Below, in pieces: positions 1,895 through 63,540 of a stretch of 64,000 nt of DNA (position 1 is its first letter; each line of letters begins with the position of its first letter). A program made the translations under genes and the position numbers. A model generated the notes under the pieces. That model made no database searches and had not been told where the DNA came from. It saw only the letters and a program-made list of their open reading frames with translations. This DNA comes from Octopus vulgaris (lineage: Eukaryota): NCBI GenBank assembly GCA_951406725.2, contig OX597828.1, positions 44,826,001 to 44,890,000 on the forward strand, given 5' to 3'.

Positions 1895-2290
1895 TACTCT
1901 CTTTTACTTCAATCATTTGACTGCGGCCATGCTGGAGCACCGCCTTTAATCGAGCAACTCAACCCCGGGACTTATTCTTTTGTAAGCCCAGTACTTATTC
2001 TATCGGTCTCTTTTGCCGAACCGCTAGGTAACGGGGACATAAACACACCAGCATCGGTTGTCAAGCAATGCTAGGGGTACAAACACAGACACACAAACAG
2101 ACACACGCATATACATACATATATATGACGGGCTTCTTTCAGTTTCGGTCTACCAAATCCACTCACAAGGCTTTAGTCGGCCCGAGGCTATAGTAGAAAA
2201 CACTTGCCCAAGGTGCCACGCAGTGGGACTGAACCCGGAACCATGTGGTTGGTAAACAAGCTACTTACCACACAGCCACTCCTGCGCCTA
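1895..2290 (-). mobile_element. SINE-A, full length
   Basis: Minus strand: GGCGCAGGAGTGGCTGTGTGG (A box), GGTTCAGTCCC (B box), ccttgggcaagtgt, internal TG/TA microsatellite, 3' end ggcggtgctccagcatggccgcagtcaaatga..gaa.taaaagag; a further 3'-half copy follows at ~2305-2500. Confidence 0.85.
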
Positions 2291-2639
2291 TATATATATT
2301 TCTATGCTCTCTTTACTCTTTAACTTGTTTTAGTCATTTGACTGCGGCCATGCTGGAGCACCGCCTTTTAGTCGAACAAATCGACCCCAGGACTTATTCT
2401 TTGTAAGCCTAGTACTTGTTCTATCGGTCTCTTTTGCTGAACTGCTAAGTTATGGAGACGTTAACACACCAGCATCGGTTGTCAAGCGATGTTGTAGGAC
2501 AAGCAATACATTGCTTGTGCCCCATCCACATGTTTGTTTGTTTTTTTCTTTTTCTTTTTTCTCTGTGTTTGTTTGAATTGTATATATACATATGTATGTG
2601 TGTGTGTGTGTGTATGTAGGTGTATATATGTATGTATGT

Positions 2640-2950
2640 CATCATCATCATTATCATCATCATCATCATCATTTAACATCCGTTGTCCATGCTAGCATGA
2701 GCTGGACGGTTTGCCTGGGCTGGCACGCTGGAAGGCTGCGCCAGGCTCCAGTCTGATTTGGCATGGTTTTCTATGGCTGGATGCCCTTCCTAATGCCAAC
2801 CACTCCAAGAGAGTAATGGGTACTTTTACATTCCACCAACACTTGTACCATTTGCATGACACTGGAATCTGCCATGAATGTGATTTTGCTCGGCTTGAGA
2901 TAATAGCATGACATAATAGCAACGGTCTTGGTCATTACCTCTGTGAAGAC
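2640..2950 (-). mobile_element. Family E copy (long variant)
   Basis: (cat)n tttaacatccg..ccatgctagcatg...ggatgcccttcctaatgccaaccactcc...ccatttgcatgacac; paralog at 46820-47190. Confidence 0.7.
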
Positions 2951-2951
2951 C

Positions 2952-3452
2952 AACACTTGAAAGGAACTCATTCACCTTGCCTCCTTGAGGTGCAACACTT
3001 AACAGGGACTCGGCCACTTTGCTTCTATGAGGCCCAATGCTTGAAAGTAACACAGCCACCTCACCTCCGTGAGACCTGCTCAAAAGGAATTCAGCCACCT
3101 CACCTCTGCGAGGCTTGCTCGAAAGGAACTCAGCCACCTTGCCTCCATGAGGCTTGCTCGAAAGGAACTCAGCCATCTCGCCTCCGTGAGGCCAAATGCT
3201 TGAAAAGAACTCAGCCACCTCACCTCCATGAGGCTTGCTCGAAAGGAACTCAGCCATCTCGCCTCCATGAGGCCCAATGCTCAAAAGGAACTCAGTCACC
3301 TCACCTTCATGAAGCCTAACACTTGAAAGGGACACAACCGCTTCACCTCTGTGAGGCTTGCTCGAAAGGAACTCAGCCACCTCACCTCCATGAAGCCCAA
3401 CGCTTGAAAGGAACTCAGCCACTTTGCCTCTGTCCAGCCCAACACTTGAAAG
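2952..3452. repeat. Minisatellite of mainly 39/42-bp units (~12 copies)
   Basis: Units aaaggaactcagccacctcacctccatgaggcttgctcg (39) and ...gaggcccaatgcttg (42). Confidence 0.9.
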
Positions 3453-3728
3453 GGATTATTTGAGTGTTTATCTACCAAATCCACTCACAAGGCTTTATCA
3501 CCTCAAGCTATAGTAAAAGACAAATGCCAAGGTGCCATGCAGTGGGACTGAACTCCAAACAATGTAATTTGTGAATAACGCTTCTGAGCTGCGGAGCTAT
3601 GCATACATACTTACATTTATATATATATATATATATGCATCCATCTATCTATCTGTCTGTCTGTGTATGCATCTGTCTGTCTAGCTAGCTATGTATCTCT
3701 CTTTCTGTCTATCTATCTATGTATCTCC

Positions 3729-3764
<36 letters not shown>

Positions 3765-3874
3765 CCATATATATATATATATATATGTATCTCTCTCTCT
3801 CTCCATATATATATACAGAGAGAAAAAGAAGGACAAAGAGAGAAAGAGAGAGAGAGTAAATAGTGGGTAGATCA

Positions 3875-3911
<37 letters not shown>

Positions 3912-4140
3912 CCTGTATAGAGCCATGCATAAACAAATCAATTATTCAAACTAGGTGTATTATCCTATCACACTTTTACGTTAACTCTCACCTGGATGTG
4001 TTCAAAACCCCACCCCCACGTCCCACTACCCACCCCAAACCCCCAACACCCTCCGCTCTACGTCAGCTTCACAAAGTTGGAGACAGAAAAATGATGGATT
4101 ACAAATTAAGCTGTTCTAAATTCATCAAAGAGATATTTGT

Positions 4141-4188
<48 letters not shown>

Positions 4189-4826
4189 CATGTGAGTGTA
4201 TGTGTGTATGTATGTGTGTATGTATGTGTGTGTGTATGCATGTGTGTTTGTATGGTGTGTTCTGTGTGTATGAGCCAGTATTTGTATCAGATGGAGCTAA
4301 TGCATGTATGTGTGCATTTAGTGTTTGCATGGATGCATATGCATGTGTGTGTGTGTATGCATGAATGAATATATATGTGTGTGTATGTGTGTGTATGTGT
4401 GTGAATATGTGTGTTATTTTGAGAAGTGTTAAATTTCATAATAAGATCTTCAGGGAATACAGTTGGTGAAAATGTATGTGTTTGTGTGTGTATGTTTGTG
4501 TATGTTGTTTGTGTGCGCATGCGTATGTGTGTGTGCGAGTGTGTTTGTATGTGCGTGTGTGTGTAAGTATGTGTATGTATCTACCAGTGATTGTGAATAG
4601 GTGTGTACTTGTGGGGGTGGTCTACGTGTGTGTGTGTGTGTGTGTGCACATTAATACATTATCATCACAATCGTGATTATCATTGCAAACACCACCACAA
4701 CCACCACAAATGCTACCATTACTACTACAACCCTAACATCTCCACTACCACTCCCACTTTGACATCTCTCCCGTCATCGTCATCATCACCATCACCGCCA
4801 CCACCACCACCACCACCACCACCACC

Positions 4827-4873
<47 letters not shown>

Positions 4874-5221
4874 TCCCAACATCATGAACATCATCGTCGT
4901 CACCTCATCATCATTGTTGTTGTTGTTGTTGTCATCATCGTCATCATCGTCATCATCATCATGGTCATTGTCGTCAACATCATCCTTGTTGTTGTCATCA
5001 TCCTCATCGTCATTATCATCATCAGTGTCAACGTTATCATCATCACCATTACGAACACAACCAGCTTTATGATTATTATTACTAATCATCAGTTTTGCAT
5101 ATACATTTTGATTTGTAATAACATACATGTACATACACACAGACACACACACATCTATACAGTACAACCACATGTATGCACAAATATGCATACACACATA
5201 TCATATATATACATAATATGT

Positions 5222-5497
5222 CTGCCAGCCTTGTCTGGCACCTGTGTCGGTGGCACATAAAAACACCATCCGAGCGTGGCCGTTCGCCAGCCTCGTCTGG
5301 CACCTGTGTCGGTGGCACATAAAATCACCCACTACACTCTCGGAGTGGTTGGCGTTAGGAAGGGCATCCAGCTGTAGAAACACTGCCAGATCTGACTGGC
5401 CTGGTGCAGCCTTCGGGCTCCCCAGACACCAGTTGAACCGTCCAACCCATGCTAGCATGGAGAGCGGACGTTAAATGATAATGATGATGATGATGAT
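5222..5497 (+). mobile_element. Family E copy with tandem ~60-bp internal units
   Basis: Repeated gccagcct.gtctggcacctgtgtcggtggcacataaaa; ggttggcgttaggaagggcatcc; CCATGCTAGCATGG; (gat)n tail. Confidence 0.75.
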
Positions 5498-5507
5498 GTG
5501 TGTGGGT

Positions 5508-5910
5508 ATGCAGGAGTGGCTGTGTGGTAAGTAGCTTGCCTACCAACCACATGGTCCTGGGTTCAGTCCCACTGCGTGGCATTTTGGGCAAGTGTCTTCT
5601 GCTATAGCCTCGAGCCGACCAATGCCTTGTGAGTGGATTTGGTAGATGGAAAGTCTGTCATATATATGTATATATATATATGTGTATGTGTGTGTATATG
5701 TTTGTGTGTCTGTATTTGTCCCCCTAGCATTGCTTGACAACCGATGCTGGTGTGTTTACGTCCCCGTCACTTAGTGGTTCGGCAAAAAGAACCGATAGAA
5801 TAAGTACTGGGCTTACAAAATATAAGTCCCGGGGTCGATTTGCTCGACTAAAGGCGGTGCTCCAGCATGGTCGCAGTCAAATGACTGAAACAAGTAAAAG
5901 AGTAAAAGAG
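5508..5910 (+). mobile_element. SINE-A, full length
   Basis: gcaggagtggctgtgtggtaag...ggttcagtccc...gtcaaatgactgaaacaagtaaaagagtaaaagag. Confidence 0.85.
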
Positions 5911-7329
5911 AATATATATACTAGCAGAGATACCTGGCATTGCTTGTGTTACATGCAATTGAAGAATTAGACTTTTCTGTTATATTTTTTGTAATGAACT
6001 GGAATACCTATGTTTCGAATTTCGTCAAAATTGCAGATGAGGGTTATTTCCCTCTTTACACACCCAAACAAAATTGTAATCGTGCTACATGTATCCCATA
6101 CTACTGATTTTTATGCGCATATTCCAAAATTCCAGTCTTATTGAACCTGTTAAAAGGATTTTGCTCCTGAAAAATGATGGTCATGGAGCTCTAAAAGGTG
6201 AGAATTCAGGCCCCTGTTGGGGGTGGGTGTCTTAATGTCAACCAGAGAAGTTGAATTTTTAACTTGGGTCTTATATCTATTGTTTGAATTTCTTTGAAAT
6301 AGGAAATATATGTTCACTGGGTTTGTAAAAGAGAGCAAAGCTACAGGAAACCAAAAGATGAATGATCACAATAAGCAGTCAGCTACCCTACCCTAGTCAT
6401 TACCACTCCCAATGTAAGATTTCTCCCCATCCAGGTGACAGGCACAGCTGTAAGATGCATTACGAATCTATAGCAATTGGAAGGGCATGATACAACTGAA
6501 ATAAACATTAACAACGGTGTGACATGAGGGTTAAGGAGAAATGAAAGTGTCACATCTGGAGTTTGCAAACGACCACTATACTGATACATAACTGGACAGA
6601 ATAAATTTGCAATCTATAAACGTCTTTGAATAACCATTCACTCATCTGGGAAGGCCTTGAAATCAATGTTACCATCTGGGGACTATGTGTGACCTAGTGA
6701 TAATAAAAAGAGTGAAAGGAGGTCTGCAATCAAATAACTTTACTCAACACTTTGCAGCTGAATCAGTGGAGGCAAAGATGCCTCTCATTTACTTGACAAT
6801 TTATGCACCACATTGCAGAAATCCCAATATAAGTGTATGTCAAAGCAAACTCTTACACTGTTGTACCATTGAATTACAAATAATGCTCATCTTTTATGCT
6901 CGGGTAACCCTACAGCTTCCAAGAGCACAACTGTATTCGTTTTTGCTTAGATACAATGACAAAATTGTGGGTGTTAAGTCCCCATGGAGGGATCTTTCTA
7001 ACATGTAAAAAGATGAAATTTTATAAAAATTACTTCATTTGTGTCTAATATCTATGGTTAAAATTTCATGAACAGGAAAAATCGATGAATTGTCATGGGG
7101 GTTCTGACAATACTGTAATGACGAGGTCGATTTTTAGTAGTTACCCCCCACCAAAAAAAAAAAAGAAAACACATACCGGAAGTTTCTCATCAGATGGCCA
7201 AAATTTCTTGATGAGAAACTGTTTTTCTTTGTTGTAATGTAAATTTTCATTATATCTTTCTTCTATTGATGTATTCCTGCAAGTAGGAAGAAAAGACAAA
7301 GGTCAGCATACATACATACATAAATATAT

Positions 7330-8905: not shown

Positions 8906-8951
<46 letters not shown>

Positions 8952-9350
8952 GTATATTTATTAATTAATTATTTTATTGTTCTAGTTTATTCTTAACCTG
9001 ATGAGTGACTATATTTATATCGAAGTGATTTCTCTACTACTATAATCATTTCTTAAATATAGCAAAGAAACACGTGTCATTATTCTATAAATTATATACG
9101 TTATTATTATTATTTTTTTGCAATTTACTTAATCATTGACATTTTATTGTTATTTTAATGTTAATATTTCTATTATATATAATTTTCTAGATGGTGTAAT
9201 TTAATTGTTCATTTTGAATTGATAAAAGGTGTTTTTTTTTCTAATTTTTTATATATATATTATATTGTGTGAAATTTGATTTAGTATTTCTAAATTGAAT
9301 TTTTTTCCTTGTAAGTTTTGGGTTTTATTCCCTCAAATAATAATAATTAT
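8520..9350 (+). mobile_element. Very AT-rich, (TA)n-flanked Penelope-like terminal region carrying a hammerhead motif
   Basis: HHR at 8994-9082; 3' end ttttttccttgtaagttttgggttttattccctcaaataa resembles 61945-61990 (tttttccctgtaaatttggatttattccctaatattt). Confidence 0.5.
8994..9082 (+). ncRNA. Type I hammerhead motif with long stem II (partly decayed)
   Basis: CTGATGA 8998-9004; stem II ctatattta/taaatatag plus gaagtgatt/aatcatttc; GAAA 9067-9070; palindrome CACGTG; TC cleavage site 9077-9078; stem I weak (taac/atta). Confidence 0.6.
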
Positions 9351-16339: not shown

Positions 16340-18071
16340 CACTACCGTCAGAAATTAATTAGCACCCTTGATTTGCTCTTCACTCAAGGTATGTGCTGTC
16401 ACCTAGTGGCCATATCTCGAACTATTGCTTTGTTGCGAGTTCACTGTTGCGCAGAACGATGACGTAACTTTGTTTGCAGAGCGGTTTGAGAGTCTACAGC
16501 CTAATGATGTTGACATAGCAGTGCAACAACAACTTGGAGTGCGGATGCAGACAAATCTTCCTTTGTTTAATAGATATAGGTAGCGCCTCGCAAGGACCGA
16601 AATCACACCGTACTAAGTTTTCTCATCGCGTAAGACATTTTGAACAGCTCGTAGGTTAATTGATTTGTGTATTTGCAAGATTTTTTTCCTCACAAATTCT
16701 CCTACACTCTGCTTTGTGACGTGACTTCTGGTTCACAAAACTTTCTGTTATACATCAAATAAGGTGCGAAATTCTGCTTTCTTTCTTTTTTGTTTAATGA
16801 ATAATAACTCATAGCAGTTTTGTTATAGCATAACATTATTCAAATGAATAGTTTTAATGAAAATAACTGGTTTTTATCGTTCATTCCTAGATGGGCCCAA
16901 GACCTTGCATGACCTTGGAGAGATGGTATGAGGCTCTCTCGTGGCGTGGGAAGCTGTCGGAGGCTGCAATAGCCAGAAAACTTGGTGTAGCCAGGCGCAC
17001 AATTCAGTGCTTATTTAAGAAATACGAGGAAACCGGATCAGCAGCTGACAAAAAGGGTAGGGGACAGAAGAGGCTGACGACCCAGCAGGAGGACCGGATG
17101 CTGATCCAAAAGTCACTGAACAGCCGAAGGGCAACGAGCCGGCAACTGGCGGAGGAGATGCAAAAGGTGACAGGGAAGCAGTTGTCTACAACCACCGTCA
17201 AGACCAGATTACTGGAAGCTGGTCTAAAATCCTGTAGGGCCGCCCGTAAGCCACTCCTTACAGCCCAAAACCGGAAGAGGTAGCTGCTCTGGGCCCGTGC
17301 CCACAAGATATGGACCGTGCAGCAGTGGTGGACAGTGATGTTCACTGACGAGTCACGATTCTGTCTTGTCAGCGACAAGCCTGTCCATATGCGACGCCGC
17401 AGGGGTGAGCGCTTCAATAAAGACTGCATTGCTCCCACCATGAAGCATGGTGGGGGTGGTCTGATGGTGTGGGGGGCATTCAGCTACAGTGGTGTTGGGC
17501 GGCTCTATGCCGTTGAAGGCAACATCAACGCCACAAAGTACGTTGAGATAGTACGGAATGCTGCCCTACCCTCTGTGGGATACCTCTTTGGTGGCGAGGA
17601 GTACGTGTTCCAGCAGGACAACGCGCCTCCCCACACAGCCAAGCTCACAACCAGTTTCTTCAAGGACCATGGGGTGACGGTCATGGACTGGCTTGGCCAG
17701 TCACCTGACCTGAACCCTATTGAGAACCTCTGGAGTCGATTGGGTAGGGATTTGAATGTGCAGCAATACAGGAACTGACATGAGCTGTTTGGGGCACTTC
17801 TTGCTGCATGGAGGGCCATCTCTGCACAGTATCTGCAGGCACTCATAGACAGCATGCCGGCCCGCGTAGCAGCTGCCATTGCTGCCAAAGGAGGAGCAAC
17901 AAGATATTGACTAAATTTCACGATTAATAACAATTATGTGGTATGCTGAGATATGTTTTAATAAATTTTTGATTAAAAACGAGTTCGTTTCTGATAATAA
18001 GTTAATTAAATTAAGAAAATGTAAGAAAATGTAGAAATTTGAGAAGTGCTAATTAACTTCTGACGCAAGTG
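16340..18071 (+). mobile_element. Full-length Tc1-family DNA transposon (1732 bp)
   Basis: TA|cactaccgtcagaaattaattagcac ... gtgctaattaacttctgacgcaagtg|TA (26-bp TIRs, 23/26 identical), TA TSD, internal transposase. Confidence 0.95.
16891..17910 (+). pseudogene. Tc1 DD34E transposase, 339 codons, two in-frame stops (TAG 17281-17283, TGA 17776-17778)
   Basis: HTH (IARKLGVARRTI), GRGQK linker, MFTDESRF, FQQDNAPPH-...-SPDLNPIENLW with 34 residues between D and E, C-terminal SMPARVAAAIAAKGGATRY*; no frameshifts; AATAAA near 17960. Confidence 0.93.
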
Positions 18072-28305: not shown

Positions 28306-29002
28306 TTAGGTTGGCAACTAAGTTCCCGCAGTTTTTTTAAATTTTGGAATCTATTTTTTTCAAGAATTCTATTTTTGAATCATTTTGGAACCTATGTTGT
28401 TTTTGTTTTTTCTAGTTAATTTTTGTTAATTTTTATTTATTTTCAGATCATTAAAATGGGATGTCAAGTTAAGAAAAACGAGCATTTGCAACACCTCCTT
28501 CTTTTTGCTTTTAATCAAGGTTCTAGGGATGCAAAAGCTGCTCGCGACATTTGTTCTGTGTATGGAGAGGGTGCCATAGCTGAAAGAACTGCTCGTGATT
28601 GGTATGCCAAGTTCAAAATCGAAAATTGTGACCTCAAAGATGCACCTCGTTCTGGCTGTCCAGTTGAGTTCGATGAAGAGTGATTAAACCAAATTTTGCA
28701 TGAAAATTCTCATCAAACAATGGAACTGGCAGAGAAAATGGAATGCTCCTACACTGCTATAGAGAAGAATCTTCACTCGATGGGAAAGGTTCAGAAGTAT
28801 GGAGCATGGGTTCCGCATGCTTTAAGTGACAACAACAAAAATTAACGAGCCACAATTTCAGCTGGTTTGCTTGCTTGTCACCACTCAACTCATGAACACA
28901 AGCAACAATTTCGTTACCGAATCATTACTGGCAATGAAAAATAGTGCTTGTACATCAATTAGAAGCAATGTAAGGAATGGCTTAGCCCTGGTAAACAAGC
29001 GA
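28306..29002 (+). pseudogene. 5' half of a mariner element with decayed transposase (ATG 28456)
   Basis: TA|ttaggttggcaactaag TIR; AARDICSVYGEGAIAERTARDWYAKFK, DLKDAPRSGCP, WVPHAL, IITGNEK*; stops and frameshift; truncated after EWLSPGKQ. Confidence 0.85.
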
Positions 29003-34630: not shown

Positions 34631-34680
<50 letters not shown>

Positions 34681-34840
34681 TATGATGGGCTTCTTTCAGT
34701 TTCTGTCTACTAAATTCACCCACAAGGTTTTGGTCGGCCCGAGGCTATAGTAGAAGACACTTGCCCAAGGTGCCACGCAGTGGGAGTGAACCCAGAACCA
34801 TATGGTTGGTAAGTGAGCTACTTACCACACAGCCACTCCT
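34465..34840 (-). mobile_element. SINE-A
   Basis: Consensus match; abuts the mariner MITE. Confidence 0.8.
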
Positions 34841-35066: not shown

Positions 35067-35475
35067 ATAGGCGCAGGAGTGGCTGTGTGGTAAGTAGCTT
35101 GCTAACCAACCACATGGTTCCGGGTTCAGTCCCACTGCGTGGCATCTTGGGCAAGTGTCTTCTGCTATAGCCTCGGGCCGACCAATGCCTTGTGAGTGGA
35201 TTTGGTAGACGGAAACTAAAAGAATCCTGTCGTATATATGTATATGTATATATATGTATGTGTGTGTATGTGTTTGTGTGTTTGTCCCCCTAGCATTGCT
35301 TGACAACCGATGCTGGTGTGTTTACGTCCCCGTCACTTAGCGGTTCGGCAAAAGAGACCGATAGAATAAGTGCTGGGCTTACAAAGAATAAGTCTCGGGG
35401 TCGAGTTGTTCGATGAAAGGCGGTGCTCCAGCATGGCCGCGGTCAAATGACTGAAACAATTAAAAGAGTAAAGAG
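35067..35475 (+). mobile_element. SINE-A, full length
   Basis: Consensus match. Confidence 0.85.
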
Positions 35476-37597: not shown

Positions 37598-39962
37598 CAG
37601 GTAGCCAAAAGGAAGGCTGGGCAGCAGGTATACATAGCCAAGGGCAAAGCGGAAAAGAAGAAGTTTGCCAATGTCCAGTGACGCAAGGACCAAAGAACCG
37701 AAGTATTTCGGATTGCAAGACAGTGGGTGAGAGAAAACTGTGATGTCACAGGAGAGAAATGTATCCACATGGATGATGGTGCATTTGATTTTAATGATTC
37801 TGGGAAGAAAGAGGCTTGGAGAAACCATTATGAAAGATTGCTGAATGTGGAGAATGAATGGGTGGAGGAGAGCCTGCCAAATGTTGACCCAGTAGAGGGA
37901 CCAGCTATCCGAATAGATAGCTCCTTGGTAGATAAAGCAATTAAGGGTATGAAGTCAGGAAAACCCTCGGCCCATCTGAAATCACTGCTGAGGAGATATC
38001 TGGTGGTGTGGGCTATGGCATTGTAAACCAGGTAGTTCATGATGGAGTCATACCCAATAACTAGCGTAGCAGCACCATATTTAACTGCTACAAGGGTAAA
38101 GGTGAAGCTCTAGATAGAAATAAATACAGGGGTATCAGACCGTTGGATCAGGTGATGAAGGTCATGGAGAGGGTCATAGCCCATCTCATTATGGAGAGAA
38201 TCTGCTTAGGTGAGATGCAGTTCGGTTTTTTGCCAGGTAGAAGCACCACCGATGCTATATTCGTGATTCAACACTGCAGGAGAAATACCTAGCTAAAGAT
38301 AAACCCCTGTACTTAGCTTTTGTGGACTTGGAGAAAGCCTTTGACAGGATCCCCCGATCCCTTATCTGGTGGGCGATGTGGAAAGTGGGGATTGATGAAT
38401 GGTTAATAAAGGCTGTACAGGCCCTATACAGAGAGGCCATTCGTAAGATTAGGATTGGCAATGAGCATAGTGAAGAATTCCATGTAGAAGTAGGAGTCCA
38501 CCAAGGTTCAGCCGTCAGTCAACTTTTATTCATCATAGTTCTCCAGGCAATAGCAGAGGAATTCAAGATGGATTGCTCCTGGGAGCTCCTCTATGCTGAT
38601 GCCCTGGCTCTCATAGCAGAATTATGTGGAAGCAAGGTTTAGTATCAAAAGGCATTAGAGTGATTGTAGCAAAGACCAAAGTTCTAGTAAGTAGGAAGGT
38701 GAACTCATCACAAACCCCCTCACGTAGAAAAGGTGTTGGTAGAAACTCCATAAGATATACCCAGTGTAAGCTATGGACACATAAGAGGTGCAGCAACATC
38801 AAAGGAAGATTAACCAGGAAGATAGCTTTCATGTGCAGTAGATGCACAGGGGCAATAAACACCACAGATGCTCAGAAAACAGATTCCATTACACTCCAGG
38901 GGGAAGAAACTAGAAATAGTTGATAGCTTCTGCTACCTAGGTGACCAAGTTAGTAGTGGGGTGGATGCTCTGAGAGTGTTACCACTAGAATAAGAATAGC
39001 CTGGGAAAAGTTTAGAAAGCTCCTACCCCTACTGGTGACAAAGGGTCTCTCGCTCAGAGTGAAAGGTAGATTGTACGACGCATGTGTGAAAACTGCCATG
39101 CTTCATGGCAGTGAAACATGGGCCATGACTGCGGAAGACATACATAGGCTCGAAATAAATGAAGCTAGCATGATCCGCTGGACATGTAATGACAGTGTGC
39201 ACACATGATGGAGTGTAAGCACCCTGAGAGAAATGTTGGACATAAGAAGCATCGGATGTGGTGTGCAAGAGAGACGTTTGCGCTGGTATGGTCATGTACT
39301 ACAGATGGATGAGGAGAGCTGTGTGGAGAAGTGCCACTCCCAAACAGTTAAAGGAATCTGGGGTGGTGGTAGACCCAGGAAGACATGGAATGAGGTGGTG
39401 AAATAGGACCTTTGAAGGTTGAGCTTCACAGAGGCAATGCCGAAAGACCAAGACCTCTGGAGATATGCTGTGACTGTGAAGACCTGGCAAATAACATGAG
39501 TTCACAGATGTATCCTACACCAGTTTCGCATAACCAGCCCCAGCCCATTCAAGAGTACCTTGGATTGGAGGGCAACCTGCTGTGCTTGAGGAGACCTATT
39601 GAGTCAAGTACATCAACATCAAAATGAAAATCAAATGGAAATTGTAGTTGTGATACCCACGCTGGTGGCACATAAAAAACACCATCTGAACGTGGCTTAT
39701 GCCAGTGCCACCTTGACTAGCTTCTATGCCAGTGGCACGTAAAAAGCACCAAACAATTGTGGCCGTTGCCAGCCTCCTCTGGCCCCTCTGCCAGTGGCAT
39801 GTAAAAAGCATCTACTACACTCCATCTACTACATCTGTAGAAACCGCGCAAAATCAAACTGGAGCCAGGTGCAGCTTTCCAGTTTGCCAGCTCAGGACAA
39901 ACCATCCAACCCATGCCAGCATGGACAACGAATTTTAAAAGATGATGATGTTGATGATGATG
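37596..39962 (+). pseudogene. 5'-truncated RTE-clade LINE: decayed reverse transcriptase ORF plus 3' UTR and (GAT)n tail
   Basis: QFGFLPGRSTTDAI, AFVDLEKAFDRIPR, GVHQGS, ELLYADA, FCYLGD, RLRWYGHV, GRPRKTWNEVV; many stops/frameshifts; 3' UTR has family E motifs. Confidence 0.9.
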
Positions 39963-44857: not shown

Positions 44858-44938
44858 CAGCTAGGCCCGCATCTAGAGACATGCATGTTTCTGGGTCTTG
44901 CCCATCATCAGTCTAGAGTAGCAGAGGCCTGCTAGCTG
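44858..44938 (-). ncRNA. Intact-looking type I hammerhead ribozyme
   Basis: Minus: TCTAGA-CTGATGA-TGGG caaga CCCA-GAAA-CATGCATG-TC-TCTAGA (44917-44872); stem I extends via aggcc/ggcct and cagct/agctg; predicted GUC cleavage after 44878. Confidence 0.8.
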
Positions 44939-58827: not shown

Positions 58828-58886
<59 letters not shown>

Positions 58887-59031
58887 AAATATTAGGGAAT
58901 AATCATTATCTTTTATTAAACTTTTAATACTTTTGATATATATTTAAAATAATATAAATTAATTAATTTTATGTATTGGCTTAAGTTTTTCATTGTTTGA
59001 TTTGCCTAATAGTGGTTTTATCTCTAAATTA

Positions 59032-59064
<33 letters not shown>

Positions 59065-60913: not shown

Positions 60914-61074
60914 AAAGTTAATTAAGCCCTGTGCCTAATCAATGTGTAGCAGGAATATTTAGCAATCAAATCCAGATCCCTGTATCTGATGTAAAAAAAA
61001 AACAACAACTCAAGAATATAATCATGATTCAGTAGAACAGTGGTTCCCAAACTATGAATGGAATCTTAGTGGGT
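60914..61074 (+). repeat. ~160-bp copy of 63168-63330 inserted in a SINE-B (-, 60855-61220)
   Basis: aaagttaattaagccctgtgcc...ggaatcttagtgggt near-identical at both loci. Confidence 0.9.
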
Positions 61075-61511
61075 ACGCAACTGGTGCTTAATTTATTGAC
61101 CTTGAAAGAATGAAAGGCAAAGTCGACCACGGCAGAATTTGAACTCAGAATGTAAAGACCGATGAAATACCGCTAAGCATTTCGCCCAGTGTACTGACAT
61201 TTTCATCAGCTCACCACCTTCAGAGGGAAATGTTATTAGCTTAAAGGTAAAGCACTGGATGTGTAATCACAGGAATGTGAATTCGAGTCTCCTAGTTAGC
61301 TGCCAACACATTTTTCTGCAAAATATGGGTAGTTTATCCTGTTTATACTATATTATTAGCATTATCCTGCGTTTGAGAATAAAATTATTTTCCTTATTAT
61401 TTGATGAAATAATTTTGAAAATATTTAAATATTTCTGTTTTGTTATTCTATGTATTTGGAAATATATCTGAGCTGTGCATACACCATCTTTATTCACTCT
61501 CTCTCTCTCTT

Positions 61512-61547
<36 letters not shown>

Positions 61548-61568
61548 TATATATATATATATATACAT

Positions 61569-61909
61569 ATATAATATTAATTAGAGACAAAACCACTATT
61601 ATGCAAATCAAACAAAGAAAGACTTAATCCAATACATAAACATTTTTATATAAATTAAATAAAATTAATATATCCACTACGATCGTTTCTTGTCACTTCT
61701 AAGGACATTCATCAGGTGGTTTCAAGACCTTCTATTCAATTGAATAGAAGGTCTTGAAACCACCTGATGAATGTCCTTAGAAGTGACAAGAAACGATCGT
61801 AGTGGATATATTAATTTTATTTAATTTATATAAAATTTTTATGTATTGGATTAAGTCTTTCTTTGTTTGATTTGCATAATAGTGGTTTTGTCTCTAATTA
61901 ATATTATAT
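61569..61909. repeat. Near-perfect spacer-less palindrome, ~170-bp arms, centre 61739/61740
   Basis: ...tctattcaa|ttgaataga...; only about one mismatch and one indel seen; right side continues into an AT-rich terminus to ~61995; flanked by (TA)n. Confidence 0.95.
61760..61805 (+). ncRNA. Minimal type I hammerhead ribozyme (mirror copy on minus strand 61674-61719)
   Basis: CCAC-CTGATGA-a-TGTC cttagaagt GACA-a-GAAA-CGATCG-TA-GTGG. Confidence 0.75.
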
Positions 61910-61993
61910 TATATTTTACTATAAAATTGGATTCAATCTTAAATCTGATTTTTCCCTGTAAATTTGGATTTATTCCCTAATATTTATTATTAT

Positions 61994-62024
<31 letters not shown>

Positions 62025-62086
62025 GCGAGAGAGAGAGAGAGATGTGTGTGTGTGTGTATAATCCACAAAAATGTGTGTGTAGTTAT

Positions 62087-62485
62087 ATAGGTGCAGGAGT
62101 GGCTGTGTGCTAAGTAGCTTGCATATCAATCACATGGTTCTGGTTCAGTCCCACTGTGTGGCACCTTGGGCAAGTGTCTTCTACTATAGCCTCAGGCTGA
62201 CTAAAGCCTTGTGAGTGGATTTGGTAGATGGAAACTGAAAGAAGCCTGTCGTATATACATTTGTATGAGTGTGTATTTGTTTGTGCATCTGTCCCTGCAC
62301 TATTGCTTGGCAACTAATGTTGGTGTATTTATGTCCCCCGTAACGCAGTGGTTTTGTAAAAGAGACCGATAAAATAAGTACTAGGCTTACAAAGAATAAG
62401 TCCTGGGGTCTATTTGTTTTACTAAAGCTGGTGCTCCAGCATGGCCACAGCCAAAATGACTGAAACAGATAAAAGAATAAAAGAA
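62087..62485 (+). mobile_element. SINE-A, diverged
   Basis: Consensus match. Confidence 0.8.
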
Positions 62486-63293
62486 TATAATCCAAATGTA
62501 AAAACAAACAAAGAGCTTAGCTTATCGTTAATTGTAAGTTACAATTATCTCAATGCCACCATGTTTTTCTTTCCTCACTTTTTTTTTTTTTTTTGGCATG
62601 GAAAAGTTGTGTGAAAAGCTTAGGGCAAAATTGTTGGGGTAAAATTTTTAGGGTAATGATACCTCACTTACCACCAAAGTGGGTGCTAAGCATACCAACT
62701 GCTTAAAAGTAGTGTACTACAAAAGAACAAAAGTTAAGAACCCCTGCATTAGACCATCGCACCATGGTGTAGCTGTTGCTTAGATCCAGTCAACTCTGAT
62801 AAACTAGACCTTTGTTCAAAGACTTTGCATCCATGACACACCTGATGCTTTTCAAGAGTACATCTCATACTATATAGTTCAATGAGTCGTTTTCTTTCTT
62901 TAAAACATTGTTCTTGGCAACACATTAAAGTGAATCAGCTGCAAAGGCTGATACCTAGGAGTTCAAGAGTTTTAAGGAATATAGGGTTACACCCTAGTCA
63001 CCATTATTCTCAGGTATGATCTGATCCTGGGTGAGTCAAATAGCAGAAGATTGTTATGTGGCAAATGTGTACAGAATTCAATGGTAGGCTGGATCTTGTC
63101 ATGTGTCACACAGTTTTGCTGATGTATGAACATGCCCTGATGTTACAAGAAACAGTTCTCCTGCTTGAAAGTTAATTAAGCCCTGTGCCTAATCAATGTG
63201 TTGTAGGAATATTTAGCAATCAAATCCAGATCCCTGTATCTGATGTAAAAAAAAAAAAAAACAACTCAAGAATATAATCATGATTCAGTAGAA

Positions 63294-63452
63294 CAGTGGT
63301 TCCCAAACTATGAACGGAATCTTAGTGGGTCGCAAAAAGTTATAAAATTACGCATCAGCTTTGATTAACTGCTGTCTATCGATTTAAGTGGGTCGTCAAA
63401 AACTGGTGTGATAAATAGTGGGTTGCAACTCTAAAAAGTTTGGGAACCACTG
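63294..63452. mobile_element. hAT (Charlie-like) MITE, 159 bp
   Basis: Perfect 16-bp TIRs cagtggttcccaaact / agtttgggaaccactg; 8-bp TSD cagtagaa / cactagaa. Confidence 0.85.
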
Positions 63453-63540
63453 CACTAGAACATTACCAGTGTCATAAAAAAAACTGACCATTCAAAACTT
63501 TATGTTGAACTAACAATTTCATTCATGGTATGCTTATTCT

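Follow-up and report, generated by a model that had tools for sequence, protein, structure and literature searches.

How did a palindrome without a spacer, placing a hammerhead ribozyme motif on each strand, arise in the genome of Octopus vulgaris, and what does it represent? We addressed this question in a window of 64,000 nucleotides, the whole stretch of DNA that was analysed and to which all positions refer. The palindrome consists of two copies, arranged head to head, of the 3' end of an abundant repeat, each with its hammerhead; the repeat is likely a Penelope-like retroelement (PLE). Its parts and borders are as follows.

61510-61568, no strand: left (TA)n target tract with CA interruptions, read from the sequence; (TC)n lies just beyond.
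61560-61569, plus strand: left copy of a possible 10-bp target-site duplication, TATATACATA, flush with the junction.
61569-61739, minus strand: copy of the element end in inverted orientation and without the tail; its outer limit corresponds to family position 61909.
61674-61719, minus strand: mirror minimal type I hammerhead motif.
61738-61741, no strand: self-complementary centre AATT, apparently native to the family as judged from family contigs.
61740-61995, plus strand: pLTR-like copy of the element end in sense orientation; its 5' truncation lies 24 nt before the hammerhead core.
61760-61805, plus strand: minimal type I hammerhead motif, predicted to cut after 61801, with A·A (61771/61789) beside stem II and a palindromic loop III.
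61910-61995, plus strand: "tail" of 81-86 nt, on the right arm only; the octamer TATTATAT stands at both bounds (61902-09 and 61988-95).
61991-62024, plus strand: second copy of the possible duplication, at 61991-62000, and the (TA)n tract on the right, then (GA)n, read from the sequence.

The two arms (61569-61739 and 61740-61909) abut with 0 nt between them and agree at 169 of 171 aligned columns, in line with the near-identical, spacer-less arms of about 170 bp described in the original prediction. Identity is complete over 96 bp on each side of the centre, TTCAA/TTGAA. Further out, the arms differ by one substitution and one 1-nt indel, and matching then resumes out to 61569 and 61909. Folded as a DNA hairpin, the palindrome reaches -180.1 kcal/mol (z = -45), a value equalled by none of 100 shuffles. 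The (TA)n tracts said to enclose it were found at both outer ends. The mirrored part had been extended from 61569 to 61995; this holds through 61909, but 61910 to about 61995 is further element sequence, present on the right side only. At both junctions, TATATACATA stands flush and in direct orientation. Given the 60 matches of this 10-mer within the window, the pair is compatible with a target duplication.

The surroundings of the palindrome show two other features. The flanks are mirror-like, with (TC)n(TA)n on the left (61495-61568) and (TA)n(GA)n on the right (61996-62045), an arrangement seen at none of the 41 other (TA)n tracts of the window. A 160-bp direct duplication (60914-61074 and 63168-63330, 97-98% identical) lies on either side of the palindrome. 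A small element, located at about 63294-63453, begins within this duplication; it carries terminal inverted repeats, has a near-identical 8-bp flank and is presumably hAT-like.

Each arm contains one minimal type I hammerhead motif, at 61760-61805 on the plus strand and, mirrored, at 61674-61719 on the minus strand; core and stems were found at the positions first proposed. The motif is composed of stem I (CCAC/GTGG), CTGATGA (61764-70), stem II (TGTC/GACA), GAAA (61790-93), helix III (C-GATC-G) and GTA (61799-801), and so holds the core CUGANGA / GAAA / UH together with stems I-III. A descriptor demanding stems I and II of at least 4 bp and a palindromic loop of at least 4 nt had three matches in the window, one in each arm and one at 44911 on the minus strand, and none in 100 simulated 64-kb windows. 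The Rfam hammerhead models gave no match over the window at gathering score, nor at E up to 10 in regions 61500-62050 and 61741-61840. At E up to 10, the first of these regions returned 26 matches, mostly to microRNA-precursor models on the hairpin or the TA repeats and all below gathering score, and the second returned one chance match. A microRNA identity was rejected, as the precursor models match the hairpin or TA repeats and all stay under their gathering scores. The fold of a single arm is no better than that of shuffles (z = -0.24 to -0.71), which is unsurprising given the shortness of the motif. Pattern scans of metagenome contigs, prokaryote genomes and viral contigs gave no matches, which is expected of an animal repeat.

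Two further observations concern hammerhead folding in the window. A predicted 10-bp outer helix (61740-61749 / 61815-61824) surrounds the ribozyme and begins exactly at the inversion point; this modelled helix may mark a stop of reverse transcription. Another minimal type I hammerhead motif, in unrelated sequence at 44866-44917 on the minus strand, seems intact, with a palindromic stem I of 6 bp, a stem II of 4 bp and a palindromic loop III.

To what kind of repeat does the arm belong? Contigs from four public runs (X1-X4; 4 of the 24 listed, from three studies and under three organism labels) were aligned to 61715-61995 at 80% likeness, giving 1991 to 6279 contigs per run. In the best run, which may come from the source sample, 0.43 of the sequence words in 61100-62120 were present. 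The contigs identify the arm as the 3' end of a 5'-truncated family with many copies. Between bins 61745-54 and 61875-84, summed depth climbs by a factor of 58 to 138 in each of the four runs; contig depth is not copy number and the first bins are subject to edge effects. This climb is the 5'-truncation profile of a retroposed family.

The hammerhead is maintained in the family. Stems I and II and the core show no variant reaching 3% of depth, and such variants occur in loop II (61777, 61779 and insertions), at 61789, in loop III and downstream. Other copies in the four runs, which by the original prediction should not lack the core, have kept it. Two changes, G61795A and C61798T, have equal depth and equal contig counts in each of the four runs, at 17-40% of depth; together they turn CGATCG into CAATTG and keep the palindrome. 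Their coupling may reflect a single ancestral event. A palindromic loop III is a requirement of dimer-type PLE hammerheads (PMC4209133; here and below, comparisons refer to the accessible portions of the sources), and two paired copies of the helix III octamer reach -10.0 kcal/mol. The family hammerhead is likely a dimer-type ribozyme. The insertion itself had been proposed to be young, and the window letter is indeed a clear family minority in all four runs at only two listed places (61810 and 61939).

The non-canonical A-A pair beside stem II had also been pointed out. Stem II opens with U-A and is flanked by this A·A (A·C in 12-30% of family depth), and the G10.1-C11.1 pair is absent from the arm hammerhead: no variant reaches 3% at A61771, and 61789 holds A, replaced by C in 12-30% of depth. 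For that reason A·A is the family norm in the four runs. It is the majority state of the family, with no decay of this copy, so that the A·A itself stands, but not as a lesion of this locus. G10.1-C11.1 is described as highly conserved in PLE hammerheads (PMC4209133), in contrast to its absence here and to the U-A start and A·A flank of stem II. The A·A appears to have counterparts among the published PLE hammerheads in the supplement of that paper: where A·A stands here, the Hydra and D. willistoni rows of Fig. S3 have an apparent U·U, with the GAAA column placed by base pairing. A family-wide A·A at this position is a small natural variant of the ribozyme.

Several known systems resemble the locus. 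The features of PLEs that are present include a type I hammerhead in the terminal repeat, frequent 5' truncation, an adjacent inverted 5'-truncated copy and a tail at one end, and Octopus vulgaris is listed as having recently active Penelope families (PMC13282606). For PLEs, a bias for (TA)n, a one-end tail and a truncated copy standing inverted at the 5' end have been described (PMC8557442), and inverted pLTRs with junction palindromes and 8-10-bp duplications were reported together with a self-priming proposal (PMC3846280). In Adineta vaga, Pen2/Pen2a (PMC3846280; scheme in PMC8557442, Fig. 2) likewise have a head-to-head inverted 5'-truncated copy, a junction palindrome and a tail on one arm. 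They also share an AT-rich or (TA)n target, and the possible duplication of about 10 bp at the present locus would match theirs (PMC3846280). Unlike in Pen2/Pen2a, no ORF-bearing body separates the repeats here, and the tail measures 81-86 nt versus 30-40 in the published descriptions (PMC3846280, PMC8557442). The minimal metazoan PLE hammerheads of Cervera and de la Pena 2014 (PMC4209133) are alike in their type I architecture, short stem I, CUGANGA with an extra base, short helix III and palindromic loop. The same paper describes opposite-strand hammerhead pairs 100-700 bp apart in Schistosoma mansoni and a truncated PLE with a second hammerhead on the opposite strand.

The first interpretation of the locus, an inverted terminal copy of a Penelope-like element, is supported by the head-to-head 5'-truncated arms, the recurrent family ends described below and the one-sided tail. 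Pfam searches of 150 of the 202 window frames detected no GIY-YIG or RT ORF of the palindrome's family, so PLE membership rests on the RNA motif and the layout. Four of the 150 frames were Pfam-positive (two Tc1-type, one mariner-type HTH and one RVT_1), none of them near the palindrome, and in the same frames no host gene was identified around it. Taken together, the locus is most probably a real PLE-type inverted insertion, made by dual priming or by fold-back.

Two other identities do not fit the locus. Non-LTR retrozymes (bioRxiv 10.64898/2026.07.22.740005) also carry a short repeat with a type I hammerhead, akin to PLE termini, but, as described there, form head-to-tail tandem arrays, whereas the present locus is head-to-head and its family strongly 5'-truncated. 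A MITE or fold-back DNA transposon would have fixed TIRs in all copies, which is not the case here: the inverted side has at most 0.26% of the adjacent depth and the outer ends differ by the tail.

Where do the arms end? Behind 61909, (AT)n follows in contigs of every run (52, 30, 37 and 39 contigs among the loose ends listed); behind 61984, the same was seen in 20 (X3) and 22 (X4) contigs among those listed. The family therefore has two recurrent 3' ends, 61909 and about 61984-95, which bound an optional tail and both close with TATTATAT. The outer ends of the palindrome are these same two ends. Since the left arm ends at 61909 and the right arm at the distal end, the tail of 81-86 nt stands on the right arm only. 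Both arms also halt at the same base at the centre and share a rare variant: A at 61810 is found in both, and this letter makes up at most 0.05-1.2% of family depth. Sharing of this letter indicates that the arms derive from one template or one source locus.

At the centre, the match of family contigs extends to 61738, beyond which their letters differ (6 contigs in X1 and 8 in X4, among those listed), so that the AATT appears to be native. The family sequence just upstream reads as an imperfect inverted repeat. On the inverted side, depth in bin 61725-34 is 62.7 in X1, 59.9 in X2, 5.33 in X3 and 0 in X4, or at most 0.26% of that in bin 61745-54; X4 has zero cover left of 61735. Contigs nevertheless cross the centre into the inverted arm in three of the four runs (two studies). 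A contig of X2 reaches from 61715 to 61832, with 9 differing letters and 4 gaps, and one X3 contig lacks 6 letters at 61736. In one X1 contig (depth 33) the inversion is centred 3-4 nt further out with a 1-nt spacer, and one arm skips to the predicted cut site (61801). As contigs of X1, X2 and X3 cross it, inversion near the palindrome's centre recurs in the family. The centre could be read in two contigs, both differing from that of the palindrome, and the exact junction of the palindrome is in none of the contigs listed for the four runs.

This last result would fit an assembly or amplification artefact, in which mis-assembly or a fold-back chimera turned a single copy into a mirrored pair. 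The lack of X4 cover left of 61735, the share of only 0.43 of words in the best run and the mirror-like flanking microsatellites point the same way. We consider an artefact quite improbable: the mirror halts at a recurrent biological end and leaves out the tail, the unique flanks show no mirroring, the CA interruptions and the possible TATATACATA duplication are direct and not inverted, the arms differ at two columns, and the contigs of three runs enter the inverted arm across the centre.

Two related sequences in the window bear on the formation of the palindrome.

58874-59046, no strand: older related insertion, with an inverted distal end (58874-58902) facing a forward piece (58935-59046) and (TA)n on both sides.
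8948-9350, plus strand: diverged sister element between (TA)n tracts, with the same 3' end and the remains of a hammerhead-like motif at 8998.

Related fragments had been noticed near 58880-59040 and 9240-9350, and both proved to be homologous. The forward piece 58935-59046 is 83% identical over 114 columns and stops at a 61909-type end. The 3' end at 9240-9350 aligns with a score of 83, compared with a maximum of 63 in 2000 shuffles. The 58874-59046 copy has the same polarity as the palindrome, distal end facing proximal end, but its arms do not overlap. The letters upstream of the 58935 piece resemble the loose-end consensus of X4 and may belong to another subfamily. In the sister element, a decayed hammerhead-like motif (8990-9085, plus strand) combines a broken stem I with a very long stem II and a loop III that is palindromic (CACGTG). 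In both sister elements GTAAGT or GTAAAT (at about 9310 and 61958) stands some 35-40 nt before the distal end, possibly as the splice donor of a retained intron.

How, then, were two arms joined head to head? On balance, we favour a single insertion event: the (TA)n tract would have been cut on both strands, each strand would have primed reverse transcription, and the resulting cDNAs would have been joined. In line with known PLE biochemistry, the element-encoded GIY-YIG nuclease would cut both strands of AT-rich DNA about 10 bp apart. The two strands would prime at different sites, one distally at about 61990 and one proximally at 61909. TATTATAT precedes both sites, and only one arm would end up with the tail. 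Both cDNAs would be copied from RNA of one source locus and would stop just upstream of the ribozyme, 24 nt before its core. Their ends could then anneal via the self-complementary AATT and prime each other, which would create the spacer-less centre. The hammerhead would be a passenger of the terminal repeat.

A biochemical parallel is provided by the Anolis Poseidon element PAc (PMC11167929). In vitro, its purified protein acts on both strands of the target, which it cuts and extends, and a tail lies between two RT start sites. As in the octopus family, two 3' ends downstream of the hammerhead bound this tail and the target is AT-rich; cutting and extension of two strands would yield the layout of the palindrome. 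The PAc ends lie inside the ORF, at an AC-rich stem-loop, whereas those of the present family are AT-rich and close with TATTATAT; a union of two cDNAs is not described for PAc.

The original prediction had attributed the insertion to fold-back synthesis. In that case, one cDNA would fold onto itself at the imperfect inverted repeat that precedes the ribozyme, copy itself to 61909 and join the target by TA microhomology, a scheme close to the self-priming proposal of PMC3846280, where junction palindromes are read as self-priming. The rare A at 61810 common to both arms fits such single-cDNA fold-back equally well as dual priming. The short imperfect inverted repeat natively upstream of the centre could support it, as does the X1 contig with its inversion 3-4 nt out and 1-nt spacer. 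However, the palindrome is loop-less at its centre, and the native sequence upstream offers no pairing partner for this exact centre. Copying would also have to halt exactly at the family-wide end 61909. Moreover, the arms of the 58874-59046 copy do not mirror each other, and simple fold-back cannot yield this copy because they do not overlap; it could instead be an old palindrome that lost its middle. Two-strand priming fits at least as well, given that the left arm stops at a terminus found family-wide and that a loop-less, native AATT forms the centre. The fold-back origin is thus not established; we judge it unlikely, and it is the foremost alternative to dual priming.

The tail-less end could also result from deletion between the two TATTATAT octamers. 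Such a deletion is part of a third scenario, in which a single copy was later duplicated in inverted orientation by replication template switching or break repair. The octamer at both tail bounds would suit this scenario, and the 160-bp direct duplication around the site (60914-61074 / 63168-63330) shows that local rearrangement has taken place. Later rearrangement is nonetheless most improbable: both arms lie between the two copies of the possible 10-bp duplication, their ends are found again throughout the family, and other contigs also show inversion close to the centre.

Is priming from both target strands of wider relevance? How PLEs build inverted repeats is called open in PMC8557442. 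It is conceivable, if doubtful, that PLE inverted repeats generally consist of two target-primed cDNAs from two RT start sites, end-joined via self-complementary microhomologies upstream of the ribozyme. If this were true, a high-copy family with a G10.1-C11.1-less hammerhead would make an open mechanism readable from genome sequence alone. Because the family has two sharp 3' ends and shifting inversion centres, its junctions genome-wide could separate dual priming from self-priming. In the open-access literature on Penelope inverted or palindromic insertions, as far as its accessible portions go, we found no test of dual priming for PLEs. The locus itself is not surprising, as its layout and opposite-strand hammerheads are already in print. 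It is a clean example of a known insertion layout, unusual only in junction details that likely record how the mirror copy was formed. Nothing suggests a host function of the palindrome.

What would become of the ribozyme in RNA? A long hairpin competing with the ribozyme fold had been anticipated, and the calculation agrees: the hairpin of a read-through RNA is predicted at -270.9 kcal/mol and exceeds the ribozyme fold by 87.6 kcal/mol, as compared with 3.3-5.7 in a single arm. If the site is transcribed, the ribozyme at this locus would, according to this model, be folded away in the long hairpin and silenced. One transcript would carry a single sense hammerhead and its antisense, not two ribozymes. 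In the RNA runs, the share of sequence words is at most 0.20.

Finally, the window contains remnants of other elements, and its SINEs and microsatellites look octopus-type. A decayed LINE at 37600-39500 includes the RVT_1 match (38241-38639), presumably RTE-like by its motifs. A Tc1-type transposase remnant and a mariner-type HTH remnant are found at 16891-17775 and 28420-28680. Another inverted pair (34646-34840 / 35075-35269) consists of 195-nt arms that are 86% complementary and lie 234 nt apart.
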